Positions 17,131 to 36,566 of a stretch of 64,000 bases of DNA are shown here, in pieces. The notes under the pieces were generated by a model. That model saw only the letters and a list, made by a program, of their open reading frames with translations, was not told the DNA's origin and did not search any database. Within the stretch, counting starts at the first letter, position 1; each line of letters opens with the position of its first letter. The translations under genes and the position numbers were made by a program. The stretch is taken from contig CAVZMI010000032.1 in NCBI GenBank assembly GCA_963776275.1, positions 56,359-120,358 of the forward strand, in the 5' to 3' direction. This DNA comes from Ignavibacteriota bacterium (lineage in GTDB: Bacteria > Bacteroidota > Ignavibacteria > UBA10030 > CAVZMI01).

Positions 17131-18074
17131 TACATCCGCTGTTTAATCATCGCGGCAAGGAGTGGTATCATGATTTCATGATGCCCGGTGATCTGAACCC
17201 CCCATCCCCCTTTTTGCGTCGGGCGTTGGACTACATTGACTCTTGGCCGGTAATGCTGTAGCATATCAAAATTCGCCGTTGTAAACCCGCGGGCATCGAA
17301 TCCGAGGTTACGAGCGACAGTGAGCGATTTTAAAAAGACTTCGGGCAGGATGACCGCCGAGCCGACATTCAGTACAACGCCTCCGCCGCGCAATCTCTTC
17401 ACGACTTCACATAGTACCCGGAAATCCCTGAAGCTCAATTCACCGGTCACGGCTCCGTTCATCGATGGCTGTTGATGAATCGTATCGGTTCCGATCGCCG
17501 CATGGACTGTCACCGGGACGCCATGCGTGACGCATGCCGCGAGGATGCTGTATTTTCTCTTCGGCGCTTTCAGAAGTGCGTTTCCGAGCGCCTCGCCATA
17601 TCCCATATCACCCTCGATACGGGCCCGCTCTAAAACTCCATTGATGAATTCACCAGTTTCTCTGGACATCCCAAAACTACCATCCTCTATTTTCACCGCA
17701 ACGTCTTCCGACGTTTCCCCCCACATTGCAGTCTCCACATCGTGAATCGATGCCGCGCTGTTCATCGCAACTGCAGTGATCATTTCACGCTCAATAAGAT
17801 CTATGACGACGGGAGAAAGTCCGACTTTAATCACATGCGCACCAATCATTAAAATGACGGGTTTGTTTTTTCTACGCGAATTGACGATATCATCGACTAA
17901 TTTCCGAAGATCCCCGGCAACGAGAATTCGCGGAAGAGAATGCACGAAAGACGAAAAAGCCTCTTTCTTCGGGTTGTATACCTTTGCGAATGCTGAAAGC
18001 TTGACCCTGCTCCCACGTTTTTTAATAGAAACCGTCTTTACCTTGCTGAGATCCGCTTTTTTAAATTGTGACAT
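17130..18074 (-). CDS. Conserved protein, deoxyhypusine-synthase-like (GSU2086-type) family
   Basis: GAHVIKVG, GSAVILPEVFLK and GHHEIMIP motifs; start placed at ATG 18074. Confidence 0.65.
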   Translation of the reverse strand: MSQFKKADLSKVKTVSIKKRGSRVKLSAFAKVYNPKKEAFSSFVHSLPRILVAGDLRKLVDDIVNSRRKNKPVILMIGAHVIKVGLSPVVIDLIEREMITAVAMNSAASIHDVETAMWGETSEDVAVKIEDGSFGMSRETGEFINGVLERARIEGDMGYGEALGNALLKAPKRKYSILAACVTHGVPVTVHAAIGTDTIHQQPSMNGAVTGELSFRDFRVLCEVVKRLRGGGVVLNVGSAVILPEVFLKSLTVARNLGFDARGFTTANFDMLQHYRPRVNVVQRPTQKGGWGVQITGHHEIMIPLLAAMIKQRM

Positions 18075-18187
18075 GATATTCCTACTTTCTTCATAAACAA
18101 AAAATAACACCAGGCTCATAAAAAATAATGCACGATGCTGTACTTATTCATTAAAAAATAGTTGTATGAGTAAGGCAACAAAGAAAT

Positions 18188-19018
18188 TTATTTTACCTTT
18201 GCCGGTATCGGCCCGCGCAGACCGGAATATTCCCGCAGCTCCACATCGATCGATCCTATGACAACCTGTGTACTTACCTTGACCGGTATTTTCCGCTCAT
18301 CATCAGATAACCATACTATAATACGCCCTTCGCTCTTGAATAAACCACCTTCTTTGACAAGAGGCTCGAGAATTATGCACTTGAATGTCCCTGCCTCAAC
18401 CTCGATTTCCTGACGGCCCAGATATTTCACATCGAGTGCATACGCTGAGTCTTTATAAAAATTCTTCAGATGAAACCGTTCCCCGGGACGCCGATTATCG
18501 TAATTTTGAGTCCGCATGAAATAGAATGCCGACATAATATCGTGGACGAATTCCGGAATCCGGTAATTGCCTTCACTCGTTCTGGCAATATGATTCCGCT
18601 GATCGAAATCGGCAGTAAAATCGCGCGTGTAACCTCCTTCGCGTATGTGCTGTTCAAATCTCCAGGGGAAGATTCCTTCCGCATCGATATATGTTTCGTA
18701 CCGATCCCTGACGCGATAAATCCATGAAAATGCCGGCAGGGAATTCACCTCAAAGAGCACCTTGTACGTGCTCCTACCCTGCATAATCATAGTATCGGTA
18801 ACCGACATAAATGCTTCACCGGCGGTGATGAAGCCATAACCGATGTCGAACACCAGCTTCTCGCCAATCCCAAATGCAGTGTTCGCGATGCCTGACGGAT
18901 TCAGATTCATTGTGTCCGGAAGAACACGAACGGTATCCGTCTGGCAAAAAGCGTGCTGCTGCAAGACGAGAACTAACGCAAGAGTCCGGATTATGATTTT
19001 CCAATTATATTGCGGCAT
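18188..19018 (-). CDS. DUF3108 family exported protein
   Basis: Own ATG at 19018 with signal peptide; F.IGEKL.F.IGYGFITAG and WLSDDERKIPVK motifs. Confidence 0.75.
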   Translation of the reverse strand: MPQYNWKIIIRTLALVLVLQQHAFCQTDTVRVLPDTMNLNPSGIANTAFGIGEKLVFDIGYGFITAGEAFMSVTDTMIMQGRSTYKVLFEVNSLPAFSWIYRVRDRYETYIDAEGIFPWRFEQHIREGGYTRDFTADFDQRNHIARTSEGNYRIPEFVHDIMSAFYFMRTQNYDNRRPGERFHLKNFYKDSAYALDVKYLGRQEIEVEAGTFKCIILEPLVKEGGLFKSEGRIIVWLSDDERKIPVKVSTQVVIGSIDVELREYSGLRGPIPAKVK

Positions 19019-20032
19019 ATTTCTCAAGAAGCTGGAGCACTCCATTTTCGACATCGTCAACTGCAATTTGTTCCATGCATAGCGAGTGCAACGGCAAGGA
19101 CCTCTCGAGCATTCTGGACATTTCGATTTATCCGGCTCAAAGATTAACCTCTTCTCCGTATATGGCCCCCAGCGTGCCGGACTGCACTGTACAATCGGCG
19201 GATAGAATCCTATTACCGGAGTACCGACGGCCGCCGCAATATGAATCGGACCCGTAGAATTTGCGACGAGAACATGTATTTTCTCATAAAGGGCCGCAAG
19301 GTCTCTTAGGGAAAACCTCCCTACTGAGTTGATACACCCATTTCCGATTCCCGTGAATATTGAATCAACCAAAGATTGTTCTTCCTCACTTCCGGTCAGG
19401 ATCACTCTCAATCCCCTGTGAAGTAATCGACGTCCTATGAATATGAAACGTTCCACCGGCCAATCGCGTGCCGAACCGCCGCTTCCCGCATGAAGCACAA
19501 CCAGACGATCGGCCGGCGATATATGATATTCTTCAAAGAATGTCAGGATTTTCAGCCGTTCCTTTTCTCCAAACGGCACCGAAAAATCTCTCGACGGCTC
19601 TCGGCTGCAACCGAGCGGCTCCAGCAAATGAATATCGTATTCCAGCTCGTGACAGCGTGCATCTTTCCGGTGCTCATACACACGCCGGTTGAACAGGAAA
19701 GAATACCACCTGTAACCTGTCCCTATTCGGATCGGAATCCTTGCTGCAAAAAAAAGAAGAGCAAGCCAAAAACGCGGGAAGGCCATAACTACGACATCAT
19801 ACCGTTCTTTTCTTACGCGATGGAACAACGTCCACAATGATCCTAATTCTTCGAGAGTCAGTGCAGCATCCAGGTAACGATGTCCTTCCACAAGACCCAA
19901 CGTGTATTGACGCACAAGCATTGATATCTTTGCCTGTGGAAATTTCCGGCGCAATACCGCCAGCATCGGAAGAGAAAGAACTACATCGCCGATGCGATCC
20001 GTTCGCGTAATAAGGATGTTTCTATATTCCAT
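19005..20032 (-). CDS. GT9 glycosyltransferase (LPS heptosyltransferase-like); apparent -1 frameshift at ~19092
   Basis: RTDRIGDVVL, NSTGPIHIAAAVG and RWGP motifs. Restoring one C gives CPLHSLCMEQIAVDDV...* at 19005. Confidence 0.8.
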
Positions 20033-20224
20033 AAGAGAAATATACGCGTACAAAGACCGAAGTGCAACCTTACTCCTGATGATGTGTTTGAAATCACACT
20101 CAACCTTGCCACCATTTTTTATCAGCCAGTTTCCCGAGTCCCTTTCTGCCCACAGGACGGGAAGAGAAACATACTATGGAACAAAGATATATCGTTATAC
20201 AATTTTTAACCGGTTGTCTCGAGT

Positions 20225-20470
20225 GGCTGTTTTTACAGCCTTCGATCATTCACAATTCCGCCTTCACTTCCGCCTTCGTTCCAAAAAACGGAACTTCGGC
20301 GGACAAGTCGTTCCGGCGCCTGCCTGCTCGCCTCGCTTCGCTCGGCGAAGCGGGCCGGAGTGCCCGCCTTCAATGAAGCCTTCGGCAGGCGAAGGCCTCC
20401 GGCACGCAGGCCCGCCTTAGTCCGGAGGACGTCGGCGGGCAGGCAGGGACAGGTCGCAAATCACAATTCA
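20225..20470. repeat. Scaffold repeat with multiply nested hairpin mini-elements
   Basis: Same scaffold as 20654-20710 and 39635-39720; nested CCGCC..GGCGGACA(A/G)G and CCTGCC..GGCAGGCAGG units. Confidence 0.75.
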
Positions 20471-20504
20471 TACATACCACTCCTGACGGCGCTCGATACC
20501 GAAA

Positions 20505-20726
20505 AACAATTCTTCATTCACCGTGGTTTGACTCGCTCACCATACTAAAGTACTGCTCACACCACTTACCTTCGACCCCTCGATGAACTCGGGGCAAGCA
20601 AGCTTTGGATTCCGTGGTGCTCGCTGCAGGCTCGAGCCAAGACTCGGCAACCTGGCTGTTTATATAACCTTCGATCATTCACAATTCAAGAATCACAATT
20701 CACAATTTATTTGTAGCCTCGACTCG
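20505..20726. repeat. Dispersed ~220-bp intergenic repeat, copy A (empty TCACAATTC site)
   Basis: Collinear with 39515-39736, e.g. CCAAG.CTC.GCAACCTGGCT.TTTATA...TCACAATTTATT...GCCTCGACTCG. Confidence 0.75.
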
Positions 20727-20811
20727 TTAACGAACCCCGGTAGGGGTGGTATATTTATAGAACCGGATTTCAGAAAAATACAAACCCTGTAAGTGTGACA
20801 TGTTAAAATTT

Positions 20812-21894
20812 CTATTTCAGCAAAACCATCCGTTTTGTTATCGTGACATTTCCGCTCTGGAGACGGCAGAAATAGACTCCACTCGACACCGATGCTGCAT
20901 TCCAACGGATCACGTACGATCCCGGTTCGAGGAGAGCGTTCAGAAGTGTTTCGATTTCCTTCCCTGTGATATCAAAGAGTGTGATCGAGACACGATCATG
21001 TCTGGGCACATGGAATTTGATAGTGGTTCCGGGATTAAAAGGATTTGGATAATTCTGCTCGAGGATGAATTGCGGCGGTGTTCCGTCCACATTCTGTTCA
21101 ACTCCGAGTGTGGCTTCATATGCGATTGCCGCGTTGAATATCTCTTCAACAAGAAGCGGCGCTACATGAGCCGTTGCCGCATCATTCGGGTGGCTGTTGC
21201 CGGACTCGGTGCGGTACGAGTCGGGCAATTTGCCGTCCGAACCGGCAAGATGGTGGAAGAAATCGAAAACATAGACGTTCTGCGGAAACTGTCCGAACGC
21301 CGGGTCGAAACCGCCGGCAAGCGTATCTTTTGCCCAGCGGCAGAATTGGTCGGACAGGAGTGCCGATTCATCGCTGGTCGATTCTCTCTCCTGAGGTGCG
21401 TTCGTCCATACGACGAAAAAGTTCGCCGGGTGGTTTTGCATGACACGGATAAAATTGCGCCAGTGCCACTTGTAATTGAAGATCGTTTTCGATGCCGGAT
21501 CGGTGGTATCCGAGGGCTCGCCCTCGCCCCACAGGTCGGATGATGGAAAACACGATTTAATCATGATAATTTTGTTGGCGGCAAGGTACGGACCGATATC
21601 GGAGGTGGTATCGTTGCTATCGAAAATATCGTGCCACCTGGACCATTCATTATCCCACGGATCCACCGGCCACCATTCTTCGTTGAGCGAGACTGCGAAT
21701 GATCCGGTATATCCATGACTTGAATTATAAGCATCGATCTCCTGCGGAACGCTAGTTGCACTTCCATTCGGTCCCCAGATGCATCCGCCTGTCGAATGGT
21801 GCAGGAATATGCCGCTGCGGAATAGATTTTCTTGCGCGGATGTGGATGTGAGAAAGGAAATTGTCAGCAAGTAAAACAGTATGGTCTTGTGCAT
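20812..21894 (-). CDS. Secreted protein with T9SS type A C-terminal sorting domain
   Basis: Signal peptide after a GGAGGAG RBS; FLHHSTG and IKSCFP N-domain; LEQNYPNPFNP...SGVYFCRL...KRMVLLK tail. Confidence 0.8.
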   Translation of the reverse strand: MHKTILFYLLTISFLTSTSAQENLFRSGIFLHHSTGGCIWGPNGSATSVPQEIDAYNSSHGYTGSFAVSLNEEWWPVDPWDNEWSRWHDIFDSNDTTSDIGPYLAANKIIMIKSCFPSSDLWGEGEPSDTTDPASKTIFNYKWHWRNFIRVMQNHPANFFVVWTNAPQERESTSDESALLSDQFCRWAKDTLAGGFDPAFGQFPQNVYVFDFFHHLAGSDGKLPDSYRTESGNSHPNDAATAHVAPLLVEEIFNAAIAYEATLGVEQNVDGTPPQFILEQNYPNPFNPGTTIKFHVPRHDRVSITLFDITGKEIETLLNALLEPGSYVIRWNAASVSSGVYFCRLQSGNVTITKRMVLLK

Positions 21895-22003
21895 GTACTC
21901 CTCCATATGTAGTTTAGTTATAGTAGATTGCATGTGATAATTTCTTATATCTGCTCACGCACATAATCTACTACCTTTTTACGGCAAAGCCAACTCGACA
22001 TAA

Positions 22004-22022
22004 CCACCGCCAAAGGCAGTGG
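22004..22022. repeat. IS200/IS605- or REP-like hairpin remnant
   Basis: CCACCGCC-AAA-GGCAGTGG; resembles IS605-type subterminal hairpins; no transposase nearby. Confidence 0.35.
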
Positions 22023-22073
22023 ACTTCTGCTTCACACTAAAATAAAGTGGGTCGGTTTTGTTGTGAATTTACC

Positions 22074-22102
22074 TTGACTTTAAATGTGGAATATAATAAC
22101 AT
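22074..22102 (+). promoter_or_regulatory. Candidate sigma70 promoter upstream of the first attI (Pc-like)
   Basis: TTGACT-N17-TAACAT. Confidence 0.4.
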
Positions 22103-22118
22103 GTCAACATCCTACAAC

Positions 22119-22176
22119 TATGTTTCCCAAAGCCGTGTTTGGAATATTGGGTGGAGCAATATAGTTATCGTTAGCC
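22119..22176 (+). mobile_element. attI-like site, copy 1
   Basis: TATGTTTCCCAAAGCCGTGTTTGGAATATTGGGTGGAGCAATATAGTTATCG|TTAGCC; similarity between copies ends at the GTTAGCC core. Confidence 0.7.
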
Positions 22177-22199
22177 ACTATAATTATTAAAGTTAAAAT

Positions 22200-23093
22200 A
22201 TGATTAATAGCATTTTAAAAGTATTAAAAAATATTCTAAAATTTTATTTTGATATTTGTTTAATAATTATGTCGGTTATTATTATATCAATCATTTTTAC
22301 CCATCTCTTTCACTCTTTATTATCTACGGGTAAATATCTAAAATCCATCTTCATAATATGGATAATTCTTTTACCGATTTTAATAATTTTATATTATCTT
22401 ATTACAAAATCTAAAAATTTTGATACGTTGGGTTTTAGAATTCTAAAATTAAATAATAATAAGAAATACGCCATTAGAAATTTTTTCGTTATTACTGCTT
22501 TCACAATATCATTGATATTTCTATTCCAATTATATTATGTAAATGTCTATTTCGTACCTGTAATGTGTTCAGCAAAACCAAATTTATTTGAAGGTGATTA
22601 TTTAATGGTCGATAGGTTTTGGGTAAGAAATAATTCTCCTTCTCGTGGTGAAGTAATTGGATTTAAAACTCAAAAAATGAATTTTGATCTTGTCAAAAGA
22701 TGTGTAGCTTTTGGTGGAGATACAATAGAAATAAAGCAAGGAATTGTATTAATCAACAACGAACCAGAAGGCAAACTGATATATTTGAAAAATGCATATG
22801 ATTTCGTTGAACAGGAAGAATTGGAATATTATAAGATAATCAAAAAAAATGGTTTTGAGCATCTAGTTTGTTATCGACCAAATGGTTATTTTCGCAAGGA
22901 ACATTTTGGTCCAATCGTTATCCCGGAAAATCATTATTTTCTTTTAGGGGATAATAGAGATAATAGTGGTGATAGTAGGTATTATGGCTCTTTTCCTAAA
23001 AATGAAATGTTTTGTAAAGCAGGATTTGTATATTTTTCAATTGACCCAATAACTAAAAAAATACGATGGTCAAGAATTGGGATAACAATTTAA
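22200..23093 (+). CDS. Signal peptidase I-like protein in an integron cassette (AT-rich)
   Basis: KPNLFEGDYLMVDR, LVKRCVAFGGDTI and LLGDNRDNSGDSRYYG motifs. Cassette bounded by GTTAGCCACTA (22170) and TAGGCGGCTAAC (23117). Confidence 0.85.
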   Translation: MINSILKVLKNILKFYFDICLIIMSVIIISIIFTHLFHSLLSTGKYLKSIFIIWIILLPILIILYYLITKSKNFDTLGFRILKLNNNKKYAIRNFFVITAFTISLIFLFQLYYVNVYFVPVMCSAKPNLFEGDYLMVDRFWVRNNSPSRGEVIGFKTQKMNFDLVKRCVAFGGDTIEIKQGIVLINNEPEGKLIYLKNAYDFVEQEELEYYKIIKKNGFEHLVCYRPNGYFRKEHFGPIVIPENHYFLLGDNRDNSGDSRYYGSFPKNEMFCKAGFVYFSIDPITKKIRWSRIGITI

Positions 23094-23250
23094 GTAATTA
23101 TAAAATAGGCGGCTAACAAAAGTATTGATTTTTTGTGTCGGCGGGTAAGCGTGGTACATTAAGCATGGCTGGCAGAGATCTCGTGAAAACTGTAAAGCAA
23201 TCTACCATATTTCGATAGATATAGTTAAAATGATTTTTAATTTCGGGTGT

Positions 23251-23317
23251 CTTATGTGTTTCCCAAAGCCATGTTTGGAATATTAGGTGGATCGATATAA
23301 ATTAATTATTGTTAGCC
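23251..23317 (+). mobile_element. attI-like site, copy 2
   Basis: TGTTTCCCAAAGCCATGTTTGGAATATTAGGTGGATCGATATAAATTAATTATTG|TTAGCC (5 nt longer than copies 1 and 3). Confidence 0.7.
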
Positions 23318-23320
23318 GTC

Positions 23321-24046
23321 ATGTCAACTACACATAGTCCCGTAGAATGCGGGGATTGCGGGAGCGCAATCGATGTGAGCGCAGACCCTCCTGAGGGACG
23401 AGCCCCTTGCCCGAAATGCGGAAGCAAGAAACGCGCATACTATGCCACAATGGCAAATGCACAACCAACAGACTACATGCTTGACCACTTCGTCGCGCAC
23501 AAGCTTTCGCAACTCACTGAGTGCGGGGCGGCTGAACTGCCTGAGAAATCGTCTTGGTTGAATGCCTTCATTCTCAATAACCTCTTCATGGTCAACTTCC
23601 CCCTGAAGACACGCGCGTACCTGTTCAACTTCCTCAGGCGTGCTGAAGGAGCACTTTCGGGCTATCGCGAGGCGCGTCTCGCGCTGATTAACTACGTCAA
23701 TACACCACGCAGCACCATCTACCCATATTTCAAGGCACTCTCGCTATTCGAGATCTGTGTCTCGCAGTGCTACCAGGGATACGAGCTCCTCGCTACTGCA
23801 TCTGGTGAGAGGTTCTTCGAGCAGGGCGATGGAAGCGCCGCAGAACGGCTTCAAAAGCTCTATGTAGATTCCAAGCACATGGATTGCATGATTGATGGCG
23901 AAAAAGTACCATTAGAAGCAACAGTTCCCCTATGGATCACTAATTCTGGACTTGAGAGCGGTAGGGCCGCGCTCTCATTTCTGGAACTGGAAGAGATACT
24001 GCTCAACATGTACACATTAGCGGAAAAGGTTTCTATGCTTGACTAG
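23321..24046 (+). CDS. Hypothetical cassette protein with N-terminal CxxC...CxxC zinc ribbon
   Basis: ATG 10 nt after the core G at 23311; CGDCG and CPKCGS motifs. Confidence 0.7.
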   Translation: MSTTHSPVECGDCGSAIDVSADPPEGRAPCPKCGSKKRAYYATMANAQPTDYMLDHFVAHKLSQLTECGAAELPEKSSWLNAFILNNLFMVNFPLKTRAYLFNFLRRAEGALSGYREARLALINYVNTPRSTIYPYFKALSLFEICVSQCYQGYELLATASGERFFEQGDGSAAERLQKLYVDSKHMDCMIDGEKVPLEATVPLWITNSGLESGRAALSFLELEEILLNMYTLAEKVSMLD

Positions 24047-24052
24047 TACGCA

Positions 24053-24160
24053 GATCAAATGCGTGAGGTAATTCGATCACGCCATTACAGCTACAAGAGT
24101 GAAGAAGCCCATGTTCTCAACCTTGGCCCGGCCGGTGTCCGCAATCGAATCGATACCCTT
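24053..24160 (+). pseudogene. intI: Integron integrase remnant: N-terminus fused in frame to extreme C-terminus
   Basis: Translates DQMREVIRSRHYSYKSEEA|HVLNLGPAGVRNRIDTL. This matches the IntI N-terminus (DQxRxxIRxxHYSxxTExAY) and C-terminus (THVLxxGxxGVRSPLD). Confidence 0.8.
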
Positions 24161-24217
24161 ATGTTTCCCAAAAACGTGTTTGGAATATTATGTGGATCAA
24201 TATAATTACCGTTAGCC
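24158..24217 (+). mobile_element. attI-like site, copy 3 (immediately 3' of intI remnant)
   Basis: CTTATGTTTCCCAAAAACGTGTTTGGAATATTATGTGGATCAATATAATTACCG|TTAGCCC. Confidence 0.75.
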
Positions 24218-24242
24218 CGTTTGTCGCTATAACAAATCGGAG

Positions 24243-24437
24243 ATGCCCAATATGAGCATGCAATCAGTTAAAAAAAGCAAATGGCTATACCCTCTCCTTT
24301 ATGTTGCCTTTTTCATTATCAGTATGTTACCGCCTTATACAGAAAAGCCATATGCTCCACAAGATACACAGAATGTGATTTGTTGTTATTTCTGTATATG
24401 CCTTCATATTACCGCGAATATACAAGAAGCGGGCTAA
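24243..24437 (+). pseudogene. Short, probably deleted cassette ORF (membrane-protein N-terminus)
   Basis: 64-aa ORF whose stop lies in the inverse core GGCTAAC; cassette ends are complementary (GTTAGCCCG / CGGGCTAAC). Confidence 0.5.
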
Positions 24438-24501
24438 CATTCGGCTCGACAGCGCATGAAAAAGCGTTCCGCTTTTTCATCGAGTCAGGCTTTTGTTAAG
24501 C
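24432..24501 (+). mobile_element. attC site (70 bp)
   Basis: R'' GGCTAAC, L'' GCTCGAC, perfect ATGAAAAAGCG-TTC-CGCTTTTTCAT stem, L' GTCAGGC, R' GTTAAGC. Confidence 0.85.
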
Positions 24502-24541
24502 GCTCGCACATTAGGTTCGACCCATTAGAAGAGGACATACA

Positions 24542-25174
24542 ATGCGAAAAATCGAAATAGCGACAATAGGTGTTTTATTTGGTGCAGTACCCATCATCAT
24601 TTGTTTTCTCGCAGGGTGGTGGATCAGCATCCCTCTTGTTCCTGAATCATGGATATTCCTATGCGCTCTAACGGGTTTTCTTGTTGGAGTACTTGTCGAT
24701 GTTCTTTTTCTAAAAACGTGGGTTCGACATGCCTATTCGATGAAACCTATAGTCTGGATGATGATTTATCTGTTCTATTCCATTGGGATGTTCGGTTTCT
24801 TCATGGGAGTTCCGGTTTTCAATGTAGCGCTTGCCTTGCCTGCTGGTTTTTTCATCGGGGGATGGCTGGTTCATAGCGGTGCAGATTCCACACGCATGAA
24901 GAAGGTAGCGCGACATTGCGCTATATTCACTACAAGTGTCCTAGCACTTATTTGCATCGCATCAGCCGCAATTGCTCTGGCCAGTTCCTCCACAGCTTCC
25001 GATCTTCAAAAAATGTTCGGTCTTTCAGTTCAGGTTACACCCGCGATGATCATTGGCATCATCTTGGGCGGAGGCATCTTCATCCTTATTCTTCAATGGT
25101 GGCTCACATTCAAGTCTGTAGAGCGAGCGTATAGATATTTTTTTGCACGTGTCAGTCCGTCAACGTTCACATGA
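24542..25174 (+). CDS. Hypothetical integral membrane cassette protein
   Basis: Multi-TM, GFFMGVPVFN motif; cassette bounded by GTTAAGCGCTC (24495) and GAGCGCTAAC (25203-25212). Confidence 0.75.
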   Translation: MRKIEIATIGVLFGAVPIIICFLAGWWISIPLVPESWIFLCALTGFLVGVLVDVLFLKTWVRHAYSMKPIVWMMIYLFYSIGMFGFFMGVPVFNVALALPAGFFIGGWLVHSGADSTRMKKVARHCAIFTTSVLALICIASAAIALASSSTASDLQKMFGLSVQVTPAMIIGIILGGGIFILILQWWLTFKSVERAYRYFFARVSPSTFT

Positions 25175-25230
25175 AGTATATCATAGTTTGTATATAGTTA
25201 CCGAGCGCTAACCAGCGGCTCCTCGGTAAA

Positions 25231-25305
25231 TCCCACTGGACCCCACAATCCCACATAAAACGTGGGACGAGTACAACACGAGAATGTGGGACGTAGTGCA
25301 ACATT
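25231..25305. repeat. Nested CCCAC..GTGGG hairpin mini-elements interrupting an attC
   Basis: CCCCACAA[TCCCACATAAAACGTGGGACGAGTACAACACGA]GAATGTGGGACGTAGTGCAACA just after R''/L'' of an attC. Confidence 0.6.
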
Positions 25306-25333
25306 GCATGACAATTAATCGGAGATTAAAGGG

Positions 25334-25792
25334 ATGGAAATTAGAGATGCCATATTTAATGATCTTCCTTCAATATTAAAGCTACAAAAGTTGTGTTATC
25401 GGGAAAATGCGGAACGATATAACGACTATCAAATACCACCAATGATTCAGACAATTAATGATTTAGAAGATGAATTTAATTATAATGTAATATTAAAAGC
25501 TGAAGATCAATCTAAAATAATTGGCAGTCTAAGAGCATATGAAAAAAATGGTATTTGTTACATCGGGAGAGTTATTGTTCATCCCGACTACCAAAACAAA
25601 GGAATTGGAACAAAATTGATGATAGAGATTGAAAGAAGATTCCCCAATGTTTCAAAATATGAATTATTTACTGGATATAAAGACGAAAAAAATATTTACT
25701 TCTATGGTAAATTGGGCTATAAGATTTTTAAGGAAGAAAACCTTGGCTATAAGATAAAACTTGTTTTCCTGGAAAAAATAAGAATAGGATGA
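25334..25792 (+). CDS. GNAT family N-acetyltransferase
   Basis: VHPDYQNKGIGTKL and NIYFYGKLGY motifs. Confidence 0.9.
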   Translation: MEIRDAIFNDLPSILKLQKLCYRENAERYNDYQIPPMIQTINDLEDEFNYNVILKAEDQSKIIGSLRAYEKNGICYIGRVIVHPDYQNKGIGTKLMIEIERRFPNVSKYELFTGYKDEKNIYFYGKLGYKIFKEENLGYKIKLVFLEKIRIG

Positions 25793-25796
25793 AATC

Positions 25797-26384
25797 ATGA
25801 AACAGATTGTCACAAAGGAAGCCCTCAAGGATTTGTCGTCTGATAATCCGAGAATAAAATACAAACGGGTCAAAAATCTCCTGACGATTGCCGGGAAGAA
25901 CCCGGAACAACTCTACCCACATCTCCCCTTCTTTGTCAAACTTCTCAAGAGCGAGAACAACATTTTAAAGTGGATGGCAATCGACATCATTGGATCTCTA
26001 TCCAGGGTCGATACGGCGAAGAGAATCGATGGATTGCTGACGACTCTCTTTGGATTCCTTCGAGCCGGGAAAATGATTACTGCGAACCATGCAATCGCCG
26101 CCCTGTCTGCCATCGCTTCAGCTAAACCATATTATCAGAAGAAAGTGACACAGGAGCTTTTAAAAGTCGAGCAATATACGTACGACACAGATGAGTGTCA
26201 TAATATAGCCCTCGGGAAAGTCATTGTGGAAATAAATTCGTATTTTAAAGAACTGAAGCAGAATGATCAGGTCGTGGAATTCGTCAGCAGGCAGATAAAT
26301 AATTCGCGTGCCGCAACAAGGAAAAAAGCTGAGAATTTCTTAAAAATTCATAAAAACCAACCAACGAAGGAGAATAAACAATGA
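25797..26384 (+). CDS. Hypothetical HEAT/ARM-repeat-like protein
   Basis: Helical protein; PEQLYPHLPFFVKLLKSENNILKW pattern. Confidence 0.55.
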   Translation: MKQIVTKEALKDLSSDNPRIKYKRVKNLLTIAGKNPEQLYPHLPFFVKLLKSENNILKWMAIDIIGSLSRVDTAKRIDGLLTTLFGFLRAGKMITANHAIAALSAIASAKPYYQKKVTQELLKVEQYTYDTDECHNIALGKVIVEINSYFKELKQNDQVVEFVSRQINNSRAATRKKAENFLKIHKNQPTKENKQ

Positions 26385-26765
26385 AATCGATTAAATTGGT
26401 TTTCCTCTACGGATTTCTCATCTGGCTAATACCCTTCATCGTATCGTTCATTATATTCCCGATTCATGAGAATGACCGTACGCTGTTCGAATCTATCATG
26501 CCTGTCGTATTGACTATTAGTACAGTTCTGTTTTCAATTCTTTATTTAAAAAAGGTCGAAACTAAATTTTTAAAAGAGGGCATTCTCCTCGGCGTTATCT
26601 GGTTTCTGATAAGCTTCATTATCGACCAGTTTTTGTTCAGCGCAGGTCCCCATGAAAATGAGTTTTATCGACTATATAAAAGATATCGGACTTACTTATT
26701 TGATCATTCCCACCGTCACAATCGGATCCGGTTATCTCCTTGTAATTAGACAGAAACCTCAATAA
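26381..26765 (+). CDS. Four-TM membrane protein, +1 frameshift at ~26650
   Basis: WLIPF and FESIMPV motifs. Removing one C from GGTCCCC gives GPMKMSFIDYIKDIGLTYLIIP...* at 26765. Confidence 0.7.
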
Positions 26766-26774
26766 AATTATATA

Positions 26775-27299
26775 ATGCAGATTGAAAAATTACTATCCGG
26801 CGGCGATCTGCGTTCGATCGGGAAAAGCAATTCTGTTGTTTTGAAAATAAAAAATCAAAACGACTTTGACGAACTTTTTCAATGCTTGTTTCATAAAGAC
26901 AGAATTGTTGTAATGCGCGCGGCCGATGCAATTGAAAAAATAACAATAAAGGATCCTCTGTATCTGGCAAGGCATAAGAAAAAAATACTGGAATTGTGCA
27001 ACACCGCTGACGATAAAGAACTTCAATGGCATCTCGCTCTCATGATTCCAAGGCTGCATCTGACCTATAAAGAACTTGCAAGAATGTGGAATTTACTATC
27101 ACGCTGGGCATCGGATAATAGGGAGAGCAGGATTATGCAGGTGAATTCGATTCAGGGTCTTTTTGAATTATCAAGAGTCCACACTAAATTGATCACCGAC
27201 TTCAATATGATTCTTTCCAACATTGAACGGCAAAATATACCCTCCATCGCGGCAAGAATAAGAAAATTGAAGAAGTCGTTCGGTCGAATCAATCCATGA
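26775..27299 (+). CDS. Hypothetical HEAT-repeat-like protein
   Basis: GGDLRSIG, VMRAADAIEKIT and ELQWHLA motifs. Confidence 0.6.
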   Translation: MQIEKLLSGGDLRSIGKSNSVVLKIKNQNDFDELFQCLFHKDRIVVMRAADAIEKITIKDPLYLARHKKKILELCNTADDKELQWHLALMIPRLHLTYKELARMWNLLSRWASDNRESRIMQVNSIQGLFELSRVHTKLITDFNMILSNIERQNIPSIAARIRKLKKSFGRINP

Positions 27300-27454
27300 C
27301 ATCTTCCGTATAATCGATATGGCATGCGACGATCAAATATCGTATATTATTGAAAATAATCTTCAATAATAGAAAAGTAATTTTCCCCTTTGCGCTTTTA
27401 CTTTTTCCTAAATAACGTCATTATACCATTGTCTCACAGTCGGAACATATCGGA

Positions 27455-28597
27455 ATGAAACGATTCATACTTTTAATCTTGCTATTTGTTGCTGTTGGCA
27501 GCACTTCATGTAAGGAAGACACAGCCGGTTCCGATGAGAACCAGCCACCGGCAAATTACAACTCGGCACTTGCAACGCTTCTCGATTCGCTCAGGAATGT
27601 ATATAATCTTCCCGCCCTCGCCGGTGCCATTGTAACAGATACGGGTGTGATCGATGCGCAGGCAGTCGGCTGCAGACGATACGCCGGGCCGGCAAATGTA
27701 ACTGTAAACGACCAATTCCACCTCGGTTCGAATACCAAAGCCATCACTGCAGTCCTCTTGGGAATTCTTGTCGACAGCACTCTTCTCGGCTGGGATTCGA
27801 CATTGCCGTCGATATTTCCAGAGTATGCAGAAACAATGCGAACTGAATACCGCTCTGTCACAGTACGCGATATCCTTTCTCACAGCGCAGGATTCATCCG
27901 TGATCCATCCCTGACGCTTACTACACAAACACTAAGGGATCAGCGTGCGGAAGTCGTCGCTTGGGCTCTTAAACAACCCCCCGCAAACGTGCGCGGACAA
28001 TATCTCTACAGTAATCTCGGGTACATTATTGCCGGAGCTATCGCGGAAAAGTTGACGAATCGTCCGTACGAGGATCTTCTCATGGAACGGGTTCTCCAGC
28101 CTCTCGGAATAACCACGGCTGGTTTCGGCCCCATGGGAACGGTCGGACTCGAAGATCAACCGCTTCAGCATACACCTCAGTACATACCTCTTCAACCCGA
28201 AGCGGCCGCAGATAACCCTCCAATATATAATTCTGCGGGGAGGCTTCATATGTCGGTTGGTGACTGGGGCCGGTACATACAATGGGTACTGGCATGTGAG
28301 GCTGGACATCCCACGCTGCTTCGTCCTGAAACCGCACACACTCTGACTACGGGGGTAGTACCGATGCCCGGAGAGGGTTCGTATGCATTCGGGTGGGTAA
28401 TTGTCGACCGGCAGTGGGCCGGCGGGCGCACACTCACACATACAGGGAGCAATGGGCTGAACTTCGCGGTCGCATGGCTCGCCCCGAATCGAAGATTCGC
28501 GGTCCTTGCTGAAACGAATATCTGCACCAGCACGACACCCGGCTCGATGGACGCCGTCGTCGGCCGGATGATTATGTTCCATTTGAACGGACACTAG
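27455..28597 (+). CDS. Serine hydrolase (beta-lactamase class C/PBP-like fold) lipoprotein
   Basis: Lipobox STSC; SNTK, YSNLGY and HTGSNG motifs. Confidence 0.85.
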   Translation: MKRFILLILLFVAVGSTSCKEDTAGSDENQPPANYNSALATLLDSLRNVYNLPALAGAIVTDTGVIDAQAVGCRRYAGPANVTVNDQFHLGSNTKAITAVLLGILVDSTLLGWDSTLPSIFPEYAETMRTEYRSVTVRDILSHSAGFIRDPSLTLTTQTLRDQRAEVVAWALKQPPANVRGQYLYSNLGYIIAGAIAEKLTNRPYEDLLMERVLQPLGITTAGFGPMGTVGLEDQPLQHTPQYIPLQPEAAADNPPIYNSAGRLHMSVGDWGRYIQWVLACEAGHPTLLRPETAHTLTTGVVPMPGEGSYAFGWVIVDRQWAGGRTLTHTGSNGLNFAVAWLAPNRRFAVLAETNICTSTTPGSMDAVVGRMIMFHLNGH

Positions 28598-28603
28598 GAC
28601 ACG

Positions 28604-29410
28604 ATGAGCAGCGAAAACTTTTCAACGATAGCCCAACGATATAGAGAGACTTCGATAATCCAGAAGTCTGCAGCAGAAACATTATTTTCATTACTGGATC
28701 TCAAGGATGGTGAAAGTGTTTTGGATATCGGCTGCGGAACCGGAAACCTGACAAAAAAGATTTTCGATATCACTCATGGAAGAACCGTCGGCATCGATCC
28801 TTCAAAAGGTATGATCGATGAATCGATAAAATCTTACGGTAATATCATGGAATTCCGGATGATGAGGGCAGAGGATCTTGACTTTAAAAATGAATTTGAT
28901 GCGGTCTTCTGCAATTCTACCTTTCAATGGATTCGGGATGTCGATAAAGTCACAGCCAATTTCTATCGCGCACTCAAAAAGGAAGGACGTATAGGAATTC
29001 AGGCTCCGGGGAGAAGGCAATATTGTCCGAATTTCATCGCGGCTGTTTCAGAAGTACTTAAAAATCCCGGCACAAGAGAGTATTTTCGGAATTTTAAACA
29101 TCCCTGGTTTTTTCGCGATACCGCCGACGAGTACTCACAATACTTCCTCAGACAGGGATTTCACATTGCTTTGAGTGAAATACAAACAATGGAAACATAC
29201 CACAGTCCTGAAGAGATATATGAGATATTTGCATCGGGTGCGATTGCAGGATACCTGAATAAAGAGTATTACCCGGATGGATTCGACGAGTCATATAAAA
29301 AAGAATTTGAACGAATCGTGAAAGACTCATTCTATAAGCAGGCCGGCAGTGATGGAAAGGTAAAATTAGTATTTAATAGAATATTTTTAATCGCCGAAAA
29401 AACTGCATGA
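28604..29410 (+). CDS. Class I SAM-dependent methyltransferase (Tam/BioC-like)
   Basis: VLDIGCGTG and FDAVFCNSTFQW motifs. Confidence 0.85.
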   Translation: MSSENFSTIAQRYRETSIIQKSAAETLFSLLDLKDGESVLDIGCGTGNLTKKIFDITHGRTVGIDPSKGMIDESIKSYGNIMEFRMMRAEDLDFKNEFDAVFCNSTFQWIRDVDKVTANFYRALKKEGRIGIQAPGRRQYCPNFIAAVSEVLKNPGTREYFRNFKHPWFFRDTADEYSQYFLRQGFHIALSEIQTMETYHSPEEIYEIFASGAIAGYLNKEYYPDGFDESYKKEFERIVKDSFYKQAGSDGKVKLVFNRIFLIAEKTA

Positions 29411-29490
29411 AAAGAATATTTGTCGCTATAGTTATATCTGCACTATCCGTTGAAAAATAACATAATACATTTTATCAACAGGATGGCAAA

Positions 29491-30645
29491 ATGAAACTAT
29501 CGAAAGCCATGATAGAACTATTCATCGTCGTTTCGCTACTTATCACAGCCGCTGCATTATGCTTTGGACAGCAAAAGAATATCAATTCTTCCGGCTTCGA
29601 AATTCACAGAGGCGTCAACCTGAGCCATTGGCTGTCGCAATGTTTAGGGTGGTCGCCCAGGGAGACTTTTATCACAGAGAAGGATATACAATTTATCGAC
29701 AGCATGGGCTACGACCATGTGCGAATACCTATCGATGAAACCGAGATGTGGACAAGCGACGGAAAGCCGATAGAAGAATCATTCACATATCTCACCCGCT
29801 GCCTCGACTGGTGCGCGAAACACAATTTAAGGGCTATTGTCGATCTTCATATCCTGAAATCGCATAATTTCAACGCCGATAATGAAGGCGGGGAAAATAT
29901 ATTATGGACAGACTCTTCAGCACAGCACAATTTCATCAAACTCTGGAATGACATTTCGGATTACCTGAAAAATTATCCTGTCAACATGGTTGCCTATGAG
30001 CTTATGAACGAGGCGGTTGCGCCTAACCATGAAGACTGGAACAGGTTGATTGCCAAAGCTGTAAAGGTGATCCGCATACTTGAACCCAATCGTGTTCTTA
30101 TCATCGGATCGAATAGATGGCAAAGACCCGAATTTTTCCCGCAGTTAAAAGTGCCTGAGAATGATAAAAATATTATCCTCAGTCTGCACACATATTCGCC
30201 AATTCATTTTACACACAATCGGGCCGACTGGACATCCTTCAAATTATACACCGGGCCTGCACACTATCCCGGCCAGGTTGTTGCCGACGCCGATTATAAA
30301 AAATATGTCGACACAAATAATTTAGCTCTTGTGCATGGAATGGACGGATCGGTCCAGGTATTCGATAAAAAGAGGCTTACAGAAGAACTGCTGCCTGCTG
30401 TACAGAAAGCCAAGGAACTCAATCTTCAGCTTTACTGCGGTGAATTTGGATGCCTTCCTCATGTCGACAGAACTGAAAGGTTGAAATACTACAACGATAT
30501 CGTCTCGGCATTCGAAGAGAACAATATCGCCTGGTGCAACTGGGAATATAAAGGCGACTTTGGAATATATTCTTTTGACTTTGAGAAAAAAGTCTCCCTC
30601 TCACCCGATTTCGGATTGATCAACATTCTGATGCAAAAGAAATAA
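29491..30645 (+). CDS. GH5 glycoside hydrolase (cellulase family), secreted
   Basis: RGVNLSHWLSQ, YELMNE (acid/base) and GEFG (nucleophile) motifs. Confidence 0.9.
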   Translation: MKLSKAMIELFIVVSLLITAAALCFGQQKNINSSGFEIHRGVNLSHWLSQCLGWSPRETFITEKDIQFIDSMGYDHVRIPIDETEMWTSDGKPIEESFTYLTRCLDWCAKHNLRAIVDLHILKSHNFNADNEGGENILWTDSSAQHNFIKLWNDISDYLKNYPVNMVAYELMNEAVAPNHEDWNRLIAKAVKVIRILEPNRVLIIGSNRWQRPEFFPQLKVPENDKNIILSLHTYSPIHFTHNRADWTSFKLYTGPAHYPGQVVADADYKKYVDTNNLALVHGMDGSVQVFDKKRLTEELLPAVQKAKELNLQLYCGEFGCLPHVDRTERLKYYNDIVSAFEENNIAWCNWEYKGDFGIYSFDFEKKVSLSPDFGLINILMQKK

Positions 30646-30693
30646 TAAACTGCCCCACACCTCACCTGCCGGCTATAAATAGGAGAAAATCTG

Positions 30694-31101
30694 ATGAATG
30701 AAAATTTAAACTCTGCACAGGAAGATTACACGGGTGGTGGGCGGCAAGATCATGAACCTCCGGTCGTCATCGCTTCATATGGCTGGCGCTATCATCATCT
30801 CGGTATACCAACCGATATCCCCCGCCCCGGCGAGCGATTTCTTGAGCAATTCAAGATGTATGTGTCGGGTTTCGAAACAAGTCCTTACGGCATCGAATGG
30901 ATGCGATTCGAGCAGGATAGCCCTGTTTCTGAACTGATCAGAAATGTTCCCCACTTAGCCTTTGAAGTAGACGATCTCGATTTTGCAATAAAGGGTAAAT
31001 ATATACTAACTGAAGCAACCTCTCTCTCCAATGGCATAAGGGTTGCCATGATCATCCATGACGGCGCCCCTATCGAACTCCTTGAATTTCGAAAGGGCTG
31101 A
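30694..31101 (+). CDS. VOC/glyoxalase-like protein
   Basis: YHHLGIPT, PHLAFEVDDL and GAPIELLE motifs. Confidence 0.7.
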   Translation: MNENLNSAQEDYTGGGRQDHEPPVVIASYGWRYHHLGIPTDIPRPGERFLEQFKMYVSGFETSPYGIEWMRFEQDSPVSELIRNVPHLAFEVDDLDFAIKGKYILTEATSLSNGIRVAMIIHDGAPIELLEFRKG

Positions 31102-31223
31102 CAATCATTGCTTTTACACACAAGAATAATTAATTTTTATAGATCGGGACGTTTGAAAAACTCTGTTTATATATTTTCTATGGACACACTTGAGCCGGCG
31201 GTCTGAAACAACCTGTATTTTCT

Positions 31224-31492
31224 GAATTGCCACGAGCTCGGGCTTTTACGCCCCACGCTTTCGTGCTTTTCACGTCCCACGATCTTTGTGGGACCAGTGG
31301 GGTTAACTCGTGGGAAATAAGAGGAGAAAAATGAGGGGTTTTAACCCCACATTAAATTGATGTAGGGCTAAAGCCCGCAAAGATTTTTTAGATTTAAAAA
31401 TCCACGACCTGACCCCACTGGAAAGCGTGGGGCGTAAATCCCACAGGAAACGTGGGACGGAAAAAACCCGAAGCACGAGGTCGTGGCCATTC
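31224..31492. repeat. REP/REPIN-like inverted composite with mini-element insertions in both outer hairpin loops
   Basis: Ends GAATTGCCACGA / TCGTGGCCATTC; inner GGGGTTTTAACCCC and GGGCTAAAGCCC palindromes; CCACGACCTGA|AGGTCGTGG split by an insert. Confidence 0.7.
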
Positions 31493-31570
31493 ATTCGGCA
31501 TTAATTTTTCTCCGACCGGATATGTTATTCAGAGGTCTCAGCATTTAAAAGCCATGGAGAGATTCAATCA

Positions 31571-31948
31571 TTGGCTAAGGCACTTACAATAAGGGAAGTA
31601 CCTTGCAACGGCTGCACGCTCTGCTGCCAGGGTGATGCCATCAAGCTTGAAGAAGAAGACCGGGCGCTGGATTATAAGACGGAATCCCATCCGTACATCC
31701 CAGGAGCCCTCATGATTGCACATAAACCGAACGGTGAATGTTTCTACTTAAATGAACAAGGCTGCAGCATCCACAGCTGGGCGCCTTCATTGTGCCGTAG
31801 CGCTGATTGCCGCAGTCTCGCCATTAAATTGAATTATGATGCAGTACGTTCACTCCATATGATGGGCAGGCTGGATTTCCGGGTATGGCTGCAGGGACGC
31901 AGACTTATCGAGGCAATGACCGCTCATGGCGGAAAGGATAATCAGTAA
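31571..31948 (+). CDS. YkgJ-family cysteine cluster protein
   Basis: CxxCxxCC...ECFYL...CSIH..AP..CRxxxC pattern. Confidence 0.8.
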   Translation: MAKALTIREVPCNGCTLCCQGDAIKLEEEDRALDYKTESHPYIPGALMIAHKPNGECFYLNEQGCSIHSWAPSLCRSADCRSLAIKLNYDAVRSLHMMGRLDFRVWLQGRRLIEAMTAHGGKDNQ

Positions 31949-31954
31949 AATAAA

Positions 31955-32671
31955 ATGCTTAAAATCAGCGATATTGCCAAGATGATCGACCATTCAATTC
32001 TTCATCCTACATTTACAGATGATGATTTAAAGAAGAACTGTGATATAGCAAAAAAATATCATGTTGCCACAGTATGTGTCAAGCCCTATCATACTCGGAT
32101 GGCGGCTGAATTACTTAAAGGCTCCGATGTGGGGGTATGTGCAGTAATCGGTTTCCCGCATGGAAACAGTTCGACTGATATTAAAAATGCAGAAACACTT
32201 CAGGTAATTAACGACGGCGCAACAGAAGTGGATATGGTGGTGAATATCGGAAAAGTAATGCAGGGTGACTGGTCATATATCGACAACGAACTTAAAACAA
32301 TTAATGATACCTGCCGTAAAAACAGGGCACTGTTAAAAGTCATTTTTGAGACGGACTTCGTATCGCGCGACAAGGATAAAATAAGACTATGCGAACTTTG
32401 CAACAAACATGATATTGCTTTTGTGAAGACATCGACCGGTTACGGATTTGTCAGGAATAACAATGGAAAATATTCGTATGCCGGAGCGACCGAACACGAT
32501 GTAAAGCTTATGCGTAAACATTGCGCTCCCGGAGTAAAGATAAAAGCTGCCGGTGGTGTACGGACACTTGATCAATTATTGAAATATCGCGAGCTGGGTG
32601 TGACTCGAATAGGTGCCTCGGCAACGGAAGCTATTATGGAAGAAGCGAAAAAACGTTTCGAATCGAAATAG
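31955..32671 (+). CDS. deoC: Deoxyribose-phosphate aldolase
   Basis: IDHSILHP, VIGFPHG, EVDMV, FVKTSTG and KAAGGVRT motifs. Confidence 0.95.
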   Translation: MLKISDIAKMIDHSILHPTFTDDDLKKNCDIAKKYHVATVCVKPYHTRMAAELLKGSDVGVCAVIGFPHGNSSTDIKNAETLQVINDGATEVDMVVNIGKVMQGDWSYIDNELKTINDTCRKNRALLKVIFETDFVSRDKDKIRLCELCNKHDIAFVKTSTGYGFVRNNNGKYSYAGATEHDVKLMRKHCAPGVKIKAAGGVRTLDQLLKYRELGVTRIGASATEAIMEEAKKRFESK

Positions 32672-32681
32672 AGGTTGTTCA

Positions 32682-33125: not shown

Positions 33126-33231
33126 TTTCGCAGGGCGAGAAGAACTTCCGAAAATAATCAGCTGTTCTCAAAGCCCGCATAACGGTTGCAGAATATTTTT
33201 GTATGATCATAAATGATATAATAGATTTTTA

Positions 33232-34038: not shown

Positions 34039-34089
34039 AAAAGCAGTCGATGCAAGGAACAAATCCCTCGGGAGAATAATAAAAGAAAA

Positions 34090-35853: not shown

Positions 35854-36031
35854 GCTCCTTCGATGAATTTTCCGCAAATTATACATCTCACAGTTACAAA
35901 TGCACGTGGAGTAAGCTGTCGGATGTACGGGTAGTTTTAGCACTGCAGAGCGAAGTTATATCCAAACATTCTGTCGGTCTCAGTATCGGCATCGACGATT
36001 TTCACACAAAGTGGAAATCACATTGTATTTT

Positions 36032-36520: not shown

Positions 36521-36566
36521 GTCGCATCCTCCCGAATAATAGATTATAATTTCGAATGGAATGGAG

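Follow-up and report, generated by a model that had tools for sequence, protein, structure and literature searches.

Three attI-type sites in a decayed chromosomal integron of an Ignavibacteriota bacterium, and related integrase-attI modules in environmental cassette arrays

Integrons are usually presented as one fixed platform, consisting of an integrase gene (intI), a recombination site (attI) and a cassette promoter (Pc), together with mobile gene cassettes. How one array can come to carry three sites that look like attI is the question raised by a locus of an Ignavibacteriota bacterium, located in a stretch of 64,000 nucleotides of contig CAVZMI010000032.1 (assembly GCA_963776275.1, positions 56,359 to 120,358), which is called the window in what follows. 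An original prediction, made from the letters of the window, had described positions 22119-25230 as an integron-like array punctuated by tandem attI-like repeats instead of attC sites. We find that positions 22101-25212 hold the remains of a chromosomal integron with a dead integrase gene oriented like the cassettes and with three copies (R1, R2 and R3) of an attI-type site, and that the same architecture occurs elsewhere. Taken as a whole, including the recombination route by which the site would have reached three copies, this explanation appears to us fairly probable.

A 28-nt pattern derived from the repeat matches at 22121, 23257 and 24162, each time on the + strand and with 0.00 matches expected from 100 shuffles, and a looser 24-nt pattern finds only R1-R3 in the whole genome (G000; 3.70 Mb in 38 contigs), control matches being 0; the three predicted copies are thus confirmed as the only ones in this genome. 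They are 57-63 bp long, lie within 2.1 kb and share 47 invariant columns over the 59 positions of R1 when aligned, the other two copies being 72% and 88% identical to R1 in gapless register. Similarity sets in at (T)ATGT and ends straight after GTTAGCC, exactly where it had been said to stop. All copies have the same orientation, each ends at this core site (G/TTAGCC, where the slash marks the crossover point), and each is then followed by an unrelated gene. On the + strand of the window the heptamer GTTAGCC is confined to three places, where it forms the 3' terminus of R1, R2 and R3, and GGCTAAC occurs twice, at the ends of cassettes c1 and c3. The genes that follow differ in base composition, as had been noted (26, 52, 40.5 and 44.7% G+C for c1 to c4), and three of the four cassettes carry an inverse core in the places where it had been expected, c2 being without one. 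Start and inverse core are GTTAGCCACTA at 22170 and TAGGCGGCTAAC at 23106 for c1, GTTAGCCCG at 24211 and CGGGCTAAC at 24430 for c3, and GTTAAGCGCTC at 24495 and GAGCGCTAAC at 25203 for c4. The match of the inverse cores of c1 and c3 to their own starts is the expected product of insertion by attI x attC recombination. When the 24-nt pattern was allowed up to 2 mismatches in 61 relatives, only 2-mismatch matches were obtained outside G000, and in one of these (G035:C6, locus L084) the similarity is not carried on through the remaining part of the repeat. Fifteen exact-pattern matches in a scan of genome contigs were dismissed as chance, none of them extending past the hairpin-like half of the repeat, and the first exact pattern gave 0 matches against metagenome contigs.

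An attC site is recognized by its R''-L''...L'-R' arrangement, a foldable imperfect palindrome, and this is absent from R1-R3. As single-stranded DNA they have z-scores of -0.74 to +0.55 on both strands (-2.1 to -4.5 kcal/mol), as against -3.9/-3.0 for the true attC at 24428-24505. A scan for AAC..GTT hairpins of 45-150 nt over 18-40 kb of the window returned a single canonical attC, at 24436-24497; the upper size of 150 nt misses long attC sites such as those of relative G052 (see below), and sparse attC calls near the intI genes of relatives therefore say little. The original prediction was right on both counts, a single complete attC and an attI-like repeat without the attC fold. What R1-R3 share with attI is their place next to intI in cis (R3 abuts the last intI codon, and R1 follows intI codons 1-6), a core at the junction with the first cassette, which as GTTAGCC deviates from GTTRRRY at position 6 (C for a purine), and the character of a double-stranded site without attC hairpin. 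Their number departs from the textbook picture of one attI per integron. For attI1, the definition includes integrase-binding L and R boxes and accessory direct repeats (PMC12901181); GTT-containing boxes are present at both ends and in the middle of the repeat, as motifs only. Judging from position, junction, lack of a fold and homology, the repeat very probably represents the attI family of these integrons, and would as such be bound and recombined by their integrase.

The gene next to R3 is an integrase remnant. With IntI proteins from 15 related genomes as the query set for tblastn and for a profile, positions 24053-24118 match residues 36-57 of the L018 protein (tblastn, E 7.8e-4) and positions 24110-24160, in the same frame, match the last 17 IntI residues (12/17 identical, tblastn E 0.016). 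The best six-frame hit of the 15-protein profile in the window lies at 24023-24115 (independent E-value 0.03); it backs the N-terminal remnant, and the 17-residue C-terminal part is seen by tblastn alone. The translated stretch has NF011946, an integron integrase, as its sole family match (E 0.099). In all, the local intI retains about 22 N-terminal and 17 C-terminal residues, and R3 sets in with the codon next to that of the final IntI residue. The intI 3' end that had been noticed beside copy 3 is thus real, and the remnant is larger than was seen at the time. The remnant, R1-R3 and the open reading frames (ORFs) of c1-c4 are all on the + strand, which makes this a same-orientation ('inverted integrase') integron by gene orientation alone. 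It is not a complete integron in the sense of IntegronFinder, which implies an intact IntI. Genome G000, which is 96.4% complete, has no integron integrase above the TIGR02249 cut-off (best 137.6 versus 265 bits), and none of its nine TIGR02249 matches has the middle part specific to IntI; an intI above the cut-off is present in 21 of the 61 genomes formed by G000 and 60 relatives of the same order. In a genome without an intact integron integrase the array is frozen. The idea of a landing pad with several insertion points served by an integrase in trans finds no support here, with the local intI deleted and no integrase above the cut-off in G000. Upstream of R1 and R2, local alignments to the intI remnant, and of the two upstream stretches to each other, were no better than those of shuffled sequence, and family scans were empty.

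That R1 likewise follows the beginning of an intI gene was revealed only by comparison with G001, a sister species of the same genus. The two genomes are collinear on both sides of the locus (18000-22114 and 25208-38057, 94-97% identity, weaker near the borders), synteny being resumed at 25208 (88.7%). The variable block, 22115-25207, corresponds to about 580 bp in G001 (L054 4472-5051), which contain a contiguous N-terminal intI remnant, a partial right end of the repeat and one small gene. In L054, ATGTCAACATCA continues into the frame LLEQMREAKRSRHHSHRTKEV, and the latter stretch is the best IntI-profile hit of that locus (positions 9-52, independent E-value 0.0015). By this homology 22101 is the intI start codon, and R1 begins six codons later. 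The region just upstream, 22068-22102, is 74% conserved with G001 and now faces R1 and cassette c1. The integron is, to judge from this shared sequence, an old resident of the chromosomal site.

Homologous sites next to intact integrase genes were found in relatives. A sequence-only covariance model built from R1-R3 was run on 151 relatives and then on intI loci, the second search covering 265,661 bases around 20 intI loci plus L054; it gave 3 matches, 3/3 near an intI. The original prediction had asked whether the repeat adjoins intact intI genes in related genomes, and these sites do. In G052 the site (20.4 bits) ends in GTTAGCC and follows, at a distance of 130 nt and on the same strand, an intact intI of 348 codons, in G057 (18.8 bits) it lies about 260 nt upstream of a divergent intI, which is the classical layout, and in G026 an 18/18 core match lies about 115 nt upstream of intI. 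The cassette after the G052 site starts with GTTAGCCCGCCGC and ends with GCGGCGGGCTAAC, a 13-nt match that is followed by a 162-nt attC, and this match of the cassette ends marks the G052 site as the functional first junction of its array. The long attC sites of G052 measure 162 and 166 nt (L055 3425-3586 and 4274-4439) and are homologous over their whole length. As a separate observation, the G026 sequence (L074, G026:C7, a contig of 1381 bp) has a perfect 18-nt core TGGAATATTAGGTGGATC upstream of the intact intI and facing it, without L/R boxes; this could be what remains of a platform that was inserted at a different attI, or it could reflect use of the motif in regulation.

The architecture of the locus recurs in environmental DNA. 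A gapped core pattern retrieved 22 metagenome contigs, in 9 of which the model scores 12 sites; the other 13 loci had no model match at E up to 1 and were taken as chance, and L090, L093 and L099, with weak or isolated matches and no intI fragments, were excluded from the module counts. The core common to 14 aligned sites is GGAATATT..G.GGATCAATA.TAAT....GTTAG. In six contigs (L091, L096, L097, L101, L102 and L104) IntI fragments lie just upstream of the sites, and together they form a module of 560-650 nt, most copies of which are 92-97% identical. Its parts are a start G/TTAGGCCGAAGATCTCC, a motif TTGACA..TTTAAT that resembles a promoter, a remnant of intI, a spacer of about 150 nt and attI, and it extends from G/TTAGGCC on the left to the G/TTAG of attI on the right. 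The last 37 nt of the module attI are 89% identical to R3, and beyond the GTTAG the sequence is different in every copy. The parts that can be compared with the intact G052 platform (intI N-terminus, C-terminus, attI) are 78-87% identical to it, and the integrase gene has been cut down in at least 4 ways, leaving the C-terminus only, the N-terminus fused to the C-terminus as in the window, the N-terminus only, or nothing. Of the seven modules with a visible left end, five are immediately preceded by the R' of an attC (L101, L102 twice, L104 and L091, the last after an attC of the G052 type), the other two having one a degenerate junction and one a truncation. There are two modules in L091, two plus a diverged third in L102, two in L104 and three in L096, two of these diverged. 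Canonical attC hairpins are present in the same arrays, and in L101 the cassette after the module attI has an inverse core CTCTAAC that matches its start GTTAGAG. Units made of a dead intI and an attI thus sit inside cassette arrays, with crossover points on both sides, in several independent contexts. A second subtype of the module was observed in L096 (reverse complement, about 250-354) and L102 (about 6480-6592), where a promoter-like TTGACA..TCTAAT is followed by a 24-codon frame that corresponds to the last IntI residues, MATMIYTHVLNRGPAGVRSPVDAL and a stop.

The array reads as the start of intI, R1, a unit of c1 with its inverse core and a spacer x, R2, a unit of c2 with a deleted intI, R3, c3, attC and c4. 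This anatomy, the homology to attI sites, the dead integrase and the recurrence of the architecture are observed, and what we infer is the recombination route, the order of events and a possible role of the extra sites as promoters or landing pads. The repeat is very probably a double-stranded attI that starts at the end of intI and of which the last box, G/TTAGCC, would be the crossover point for cassettes. The R1-R2 and R2-R3 stretches are attI-bounded units, for which the rare class 1 cassettes of the type attI-ORF-attI offer an analogy. The integrase remnant of the second unit implies that a whole platform lies inside the array. Such units may have entered, or may have been duplicated, by integrase-mediated recombination at G/TT: an attI-bearing circle that recombines with the resident attI would be flanked by the repeat on both sides, and one that recombines with an attC would yield attC-G/TT-circle-attI, which is the layout of the metagenome modules. 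Loss of the integrase would subsequently have made the units no longer excisable, leaving three direct copies of attI. IntI1 excises an attI1-aadB-attI1 unit at 100% (PMC12901181), and persistence here fits only with absence of the integrase. With intI and cassettes co-oriented, deletion of intI brings its promoter close to the next cassette, and a gain in expression is a possible reason for the intI deletions. The recurrence of dead-intI/attI modules in environmental arrays suggests that platforms can move or stack like cassettes. More tentatively, one may envisage that a same-orientation platform (promoter, intI and attI) is itself a cassette-like unit, excised and inserted by the integrase via attI, and that deleted copies are non-autonomous mini-platforms which spread through arrays, each adding a promoter and an insertion point.

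Several observations weigh against this explanation. Spacer x (137 nt) and the lone inverse core of c1 are not explained by it. R1 and R2 have left edges that agree to within 3 nt, which simple decay or random deletion does not predict; their beginnings are at most 3 nt away from the position of the intI-R3 boundary, and a GTT box lies exactly there, which makes an alternative crossover at the left-edge GTT box conceivable. The matches to the repeat in relatives are weak (20.4, 18.8 and 13.5 bits), and the E-values of the model are rough. None of the platforms seen inside arrays has an intact intI, and neither GTTAG nor CTAAC occurs in the 1.8 kb upstream of the intact platform of G052, so that a mobile 'master copy' is hypothetical. 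In 401 sampled genomes of the phylum the metagenome module gave no match at E 1e-6, in a search without a positive control. Finally, the initial codons of intI run on into its N-terminal part in G001, whereas in G000 the two lie 1.93 kb apart, separated by R1 through c2. This contrast can be read as the insertion of the R1-to-c2 segment into an already dead intI, by a route that is not specified, rather than as stacking of attI.

The copies could also stem from plain tandem duplication, in which a segment of intI, attI and first cassette was duplicated twice by unequal or illegitimate recombination and then decayed and exchanged cassettes, without any attI units having been moved by the integrase. 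The copies are direct and close together, their gapless divergence (72-88% identity) is as in old duplicates, and the end of c2 joins the N-terminal part of intI without a core site, like a duplication junction. Duplication would leave unaccounted for, however, that no similarity extends outside 57 bp, that the borders of the units fall exactly on G/TT, that R1 and R2 have the same left edge within 3 nt, and that in the metagenome arrays the left end of the module coincides with R' in five different attC sites, an indication of site-specific joining. We regard plain duplication as unlikely. The claim that whole intI-attI-cassette units were stacked, or that attI travels with cassettes, has gained from the metagenome arrays, with their two to three modules between G/TT points; how the copies in the window originated is a matter of inference. 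For R2, it had further been suggested as a possible objection that the repeat is the right arm of a long attC, in this case a 207-nt attC of c1 (23111-23317), with R1 and R3 as truncated copies of such sites. Pairing does exist between GGCTAACAA (23111) and TTGTTAGCC (23309), and an inner stem of 10 bp is possible. The 207-mer, however, has z-scores of -0.10/+0.36, and positions 23108-23229 are likewise without excess structure; since the genuine 162-166-nt attC sites of G052 are also weak (z -0.74 and -2.04), the fold test has little power at 207 nt. Other considerations also tell against a long attC: its left arm is not a reverse copy of the repeat, its spacers would be 5 versus 13 nt, the repeat is homologous to sites that follow an intact intI at the start of arrays, and to the left of R1 and R3 there is intI rather than a cassette. 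This reading is thus unsupported, and very unlikely in our view.

A further alternative is a coding or regulatory origin of the repeat, as a 14-residue tail of IntI, a mini-ORF (MFPK..FGILGGSI and a stop), or a promoter or operator that precedes every gene. In R1-R3 the reading frame stays open up to a stop at an equal place, some of the differences between the copies are synonymous, and the core TGGAATATTAGGTGGATC lies upstream of the intact G026 intI and points to it. Yet the motif is kept in G052 and in the metagenome modules although their intI ends 130-150 nt short of the site, which argues for conservation at the DNA level; a promoter inside the repeat was considered and abandoned, the consensus scan placing no sigma-70-like promoter there, and a regulatory site would not account for similarity that ends exactly at GTTAGCC. 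We consider such an origin highly improbable. The notion that the repeat marks one end of an insertion sequence, of a miniature inverted-repeat transposable element (MITE) or of a group IIC-attC intron targeting integron sites derives its plausibility from the fact that such elements in attC sites are a known class of unusual cassettes (PMC12901181), and an insertion-sequence or intron end had been named at the outset as a possible objection. The check for it came out negative. No transposase or reverse transcriptase is present among the Pfam matches of the block, no inverted partner of the repeat was found, Rfam searches of the block, intron models included, gave nothing near the gathering score (the better of two matches having E 0.5), and the copies all have one orientation and end at the core site. 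Its probability can be called negligible. The preferred reading is hence that of a decayed same-orientation integron with attI in triplicate, the features of which are listed in Table 1.

Table 1 Features of the decayed integron in the window
Feature	Positions	Strand	Basis and remarks
Promoter-like sites, candidate PintI (promoter of intI)	22068-22102	+	TTTACC-18-TATAAT and TTGACT-17-TAACAT in consensus scan; putative function
N1, 5' remnant of intI	22101-22118	+	Start codon and five codons (MSTSYN); homology to L054 (G001)
R1, attI-type site, copy 1	22119-22176	+	No fold; covariance model 71.6 bits; end G/TTAGCC
Cassette c1	22171-23117	+	ORF 22200-23093, S26 signal-peptidase-like (PF10502, 4.1e-30); 26% G+C; inverse core TAGGCGGCTAAC 23106-23117
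Spacer x, 137 nt	23118-23254	+	Between inverse core of c1 and R2
R2, attI-type site, copy 2	23255-23317	+	5-nt insert; no fold; covariance model 65.6 bits; end G/TTAGCC
Unit c2	23312-24046	+	ORF 23321-24046, 241-aa (amino acid) Zn-ribbon protein; 52% G+C; no Pfam match
Internally deleted intI	24047-24160	+	N-terminal part 24053-24109 fused in frame to last 17 codons 24110-24160
R3, attI-type site, copy 3	24160-24217	+	Start at stop position of intI; end G/TTAGCC
Cassette c3	24212-24501	+	ORF 24243-24437, 64 aa; 40.5% G+C; only canonical attC, 24430-24501
Cassette c4	24496-25212	+	ORF 24542-25174, 210-aa membrane protein; 44.7% G+C; inverse core GAGCGCTAAC without matching R'
Right border	25213-25310		Hairpin-rich TCCCAC..GTGGGA units common to G001; variable region ends

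The genes of the block comprise a homologue of S26 signal peptidases and three proteins without a family. Unit c2 has neither an inverse core nor an attC, and spacer x has no fold (z -0.09/+0.59), no family match and no resemblance to the intI remnant or the DNA that precedes R1 (250-376 of 500 shuffles reach as high a score). The c2 protein (ORF2, 23321-24046) is encoded in 1/277 genomes of the order, that of G000 itself; the idea that it is a conserved partner of intI was given up, since it is not found in the 276 other genomes. It has 193 metagenome relatives, the best of which apart from itself shows 68% identity and many of which are on contigs of 1-5 kb, and its N-terminal part contains a zinc-ribbon motif; in some sources its relatives are labelled DUF1610 or RpoP-like. 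The first eight bases of ORF2, ATGTCAAC (23321-23328), are the same as those of the intI remnant (22101-22108), which is probably due to chance and alternatively could be the mark of an old junction.

At the right border, the hairpins of 25240-25300 (TCCCAC..GTGGGA and TCTCAC..GTGAGA) form about two units in the window and about five in G001 (L054 5060-5230). The stretch folds (z -2.9/-3.7) into a shape that is not that of attC, and could be a repetitive extragenic palindromic (REP)-like repeat or a wrecked long terminal attC with a left arm like that of the G052 attC family. Beyond it, from 25334 to 36000, a run of co-oriented small genes has the look of a cassette array and is 94% conserved in G001; it encodes two GNAT acetyltransferases, a HEAT-repeat protein, a hydrolase of the serine beta-lactamase family, two methyltransferases, a GH5 cellulase and a DeoC-type aldolase. 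Being conserved in G001 and without attC hairpins, the genes from 25334 onward were not counted as cassettes. On the left flank, positions 18188-20053 of the - strand encode a 621-aa fusion of a family 9 glycosyltransferase with DUF3108, for which G001 has two adjacent ORFs of 388 and 317 aa (G001:C5:191055-192915), reflecting either a fusion in the window or a frameshift in G001.

The locus itself is a fossil, and the interest lies in the recurring module, which has a bearing on how platforms spread and on how long arrays stay expressed, and which makes the mobility of integron platforms directly testable. If an integrase moves the modules in trans, same-orientation platforms would be mobile in the same currency as cassettes, arrays could gain internal promoters and extra capture sites, and software that recognizes integrons from attC and intact intI only would mis-segment such arrays. 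If the cassette-like nature of platforms is borne out, it would give whole integron platforms, in addition to cassettes, a way to pass between genomes. The attI sequence is unknown for most integrons, which is why attI sites are not searched in generic integrons by the tool of Cury et al. (2016; PMC4889954).

Among known systems, same-orientation integrons have been described from Treponema (T. denticola) and others (PMC3607928, PMC4889954). These differ from the present locus in having one attI, no attI repeats or in-array platforms being described in the available parts of these sources, and in that the integrase of the window is dead. In clusters of attC sites lacking an integron integrase (CALIN), 15 of 279 contain remnants of an intI pseudogene (Cury et al. 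2016, PMC4889954). These resemble the present locus, which is also a cassette cluster without a working integrase but with a recognizable intI remnant, and here the punctuation is mostly attI. By analogy only, the metagenome modules may be compared with MITE-like internal-deletion derivatives, since they likewise keep both ends while the integrase in between is deleted; unlike these, they have no terminal inverted repeats and no target duplication, and their movement would require an integrase acting at core sites.

The closest precedent is formed by the 'unusual delta-attI-type' cassettes and the attI1-ORF-attI1 unit of class 1 and 2 integrons (Gonzales Machuca et al. 2026, PMC12901181). The statement that canonical integrons have a single attI, which one source makes outright (PMC3607928) and on which the original prediction leaned, is overstated in the light of these cases: class 1 and 2 integrons contain cassettes ending in attI-derived sequence, mostly stubs of 14-18 nt and one piece of 244 nt, and in class 1 integrons one complete attI1 is found on each side of a truncated aacA4 (attI1-delta-aacA4-attI1; PMC12901181). 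Apart from PMC12901181, we found no description in the literature of natural tandem full-length attI sites in chromosomal arrays or of a family of dead intI-attI modules within arrays; the supplementary tables of PMC12901181 and PMC4889954 may list more. In the delta-attI-type cassettes, as here, an ORF of the array is followed by attI-derived sequence in place of attC (attI-ORF-attI or attC-ORF-attI; PMC12901181), c1 being followed by a leftover inverse core and R2, and c2 by the deleted intI and R3. They differ in being mostly stubs in plasmid-borne clinical integrons with a divergent intI (PMC12901181), whereas the locus described here is a same-orientation integron in the chromosome of an environmental bacterium and has three copies of a full 57-bp site, with an integrase remnant in one of the units, and its metagenome relatives form a conserved family of 560-650-nt modules. 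It does not belong to class 1 or 2, being chromosomal, common to G001 and of another attI family. The delta-attI-type cassettes are recombined by the integrase, and units flanked by two full attI sites are seldom seen in the presence of an active integrase; IntI1 handles attI x attI recombination as well as attI-bounded cassettes, and the complete excision of attI1-aadB-attI1 is the reason that the authors give for this rarity (PMC12901181). The present locus may thus be seen as the natural counterpart to the near-immediate excision of attI-ORF-attI units in the laboratory: here the integrase is gone, and the units survive.

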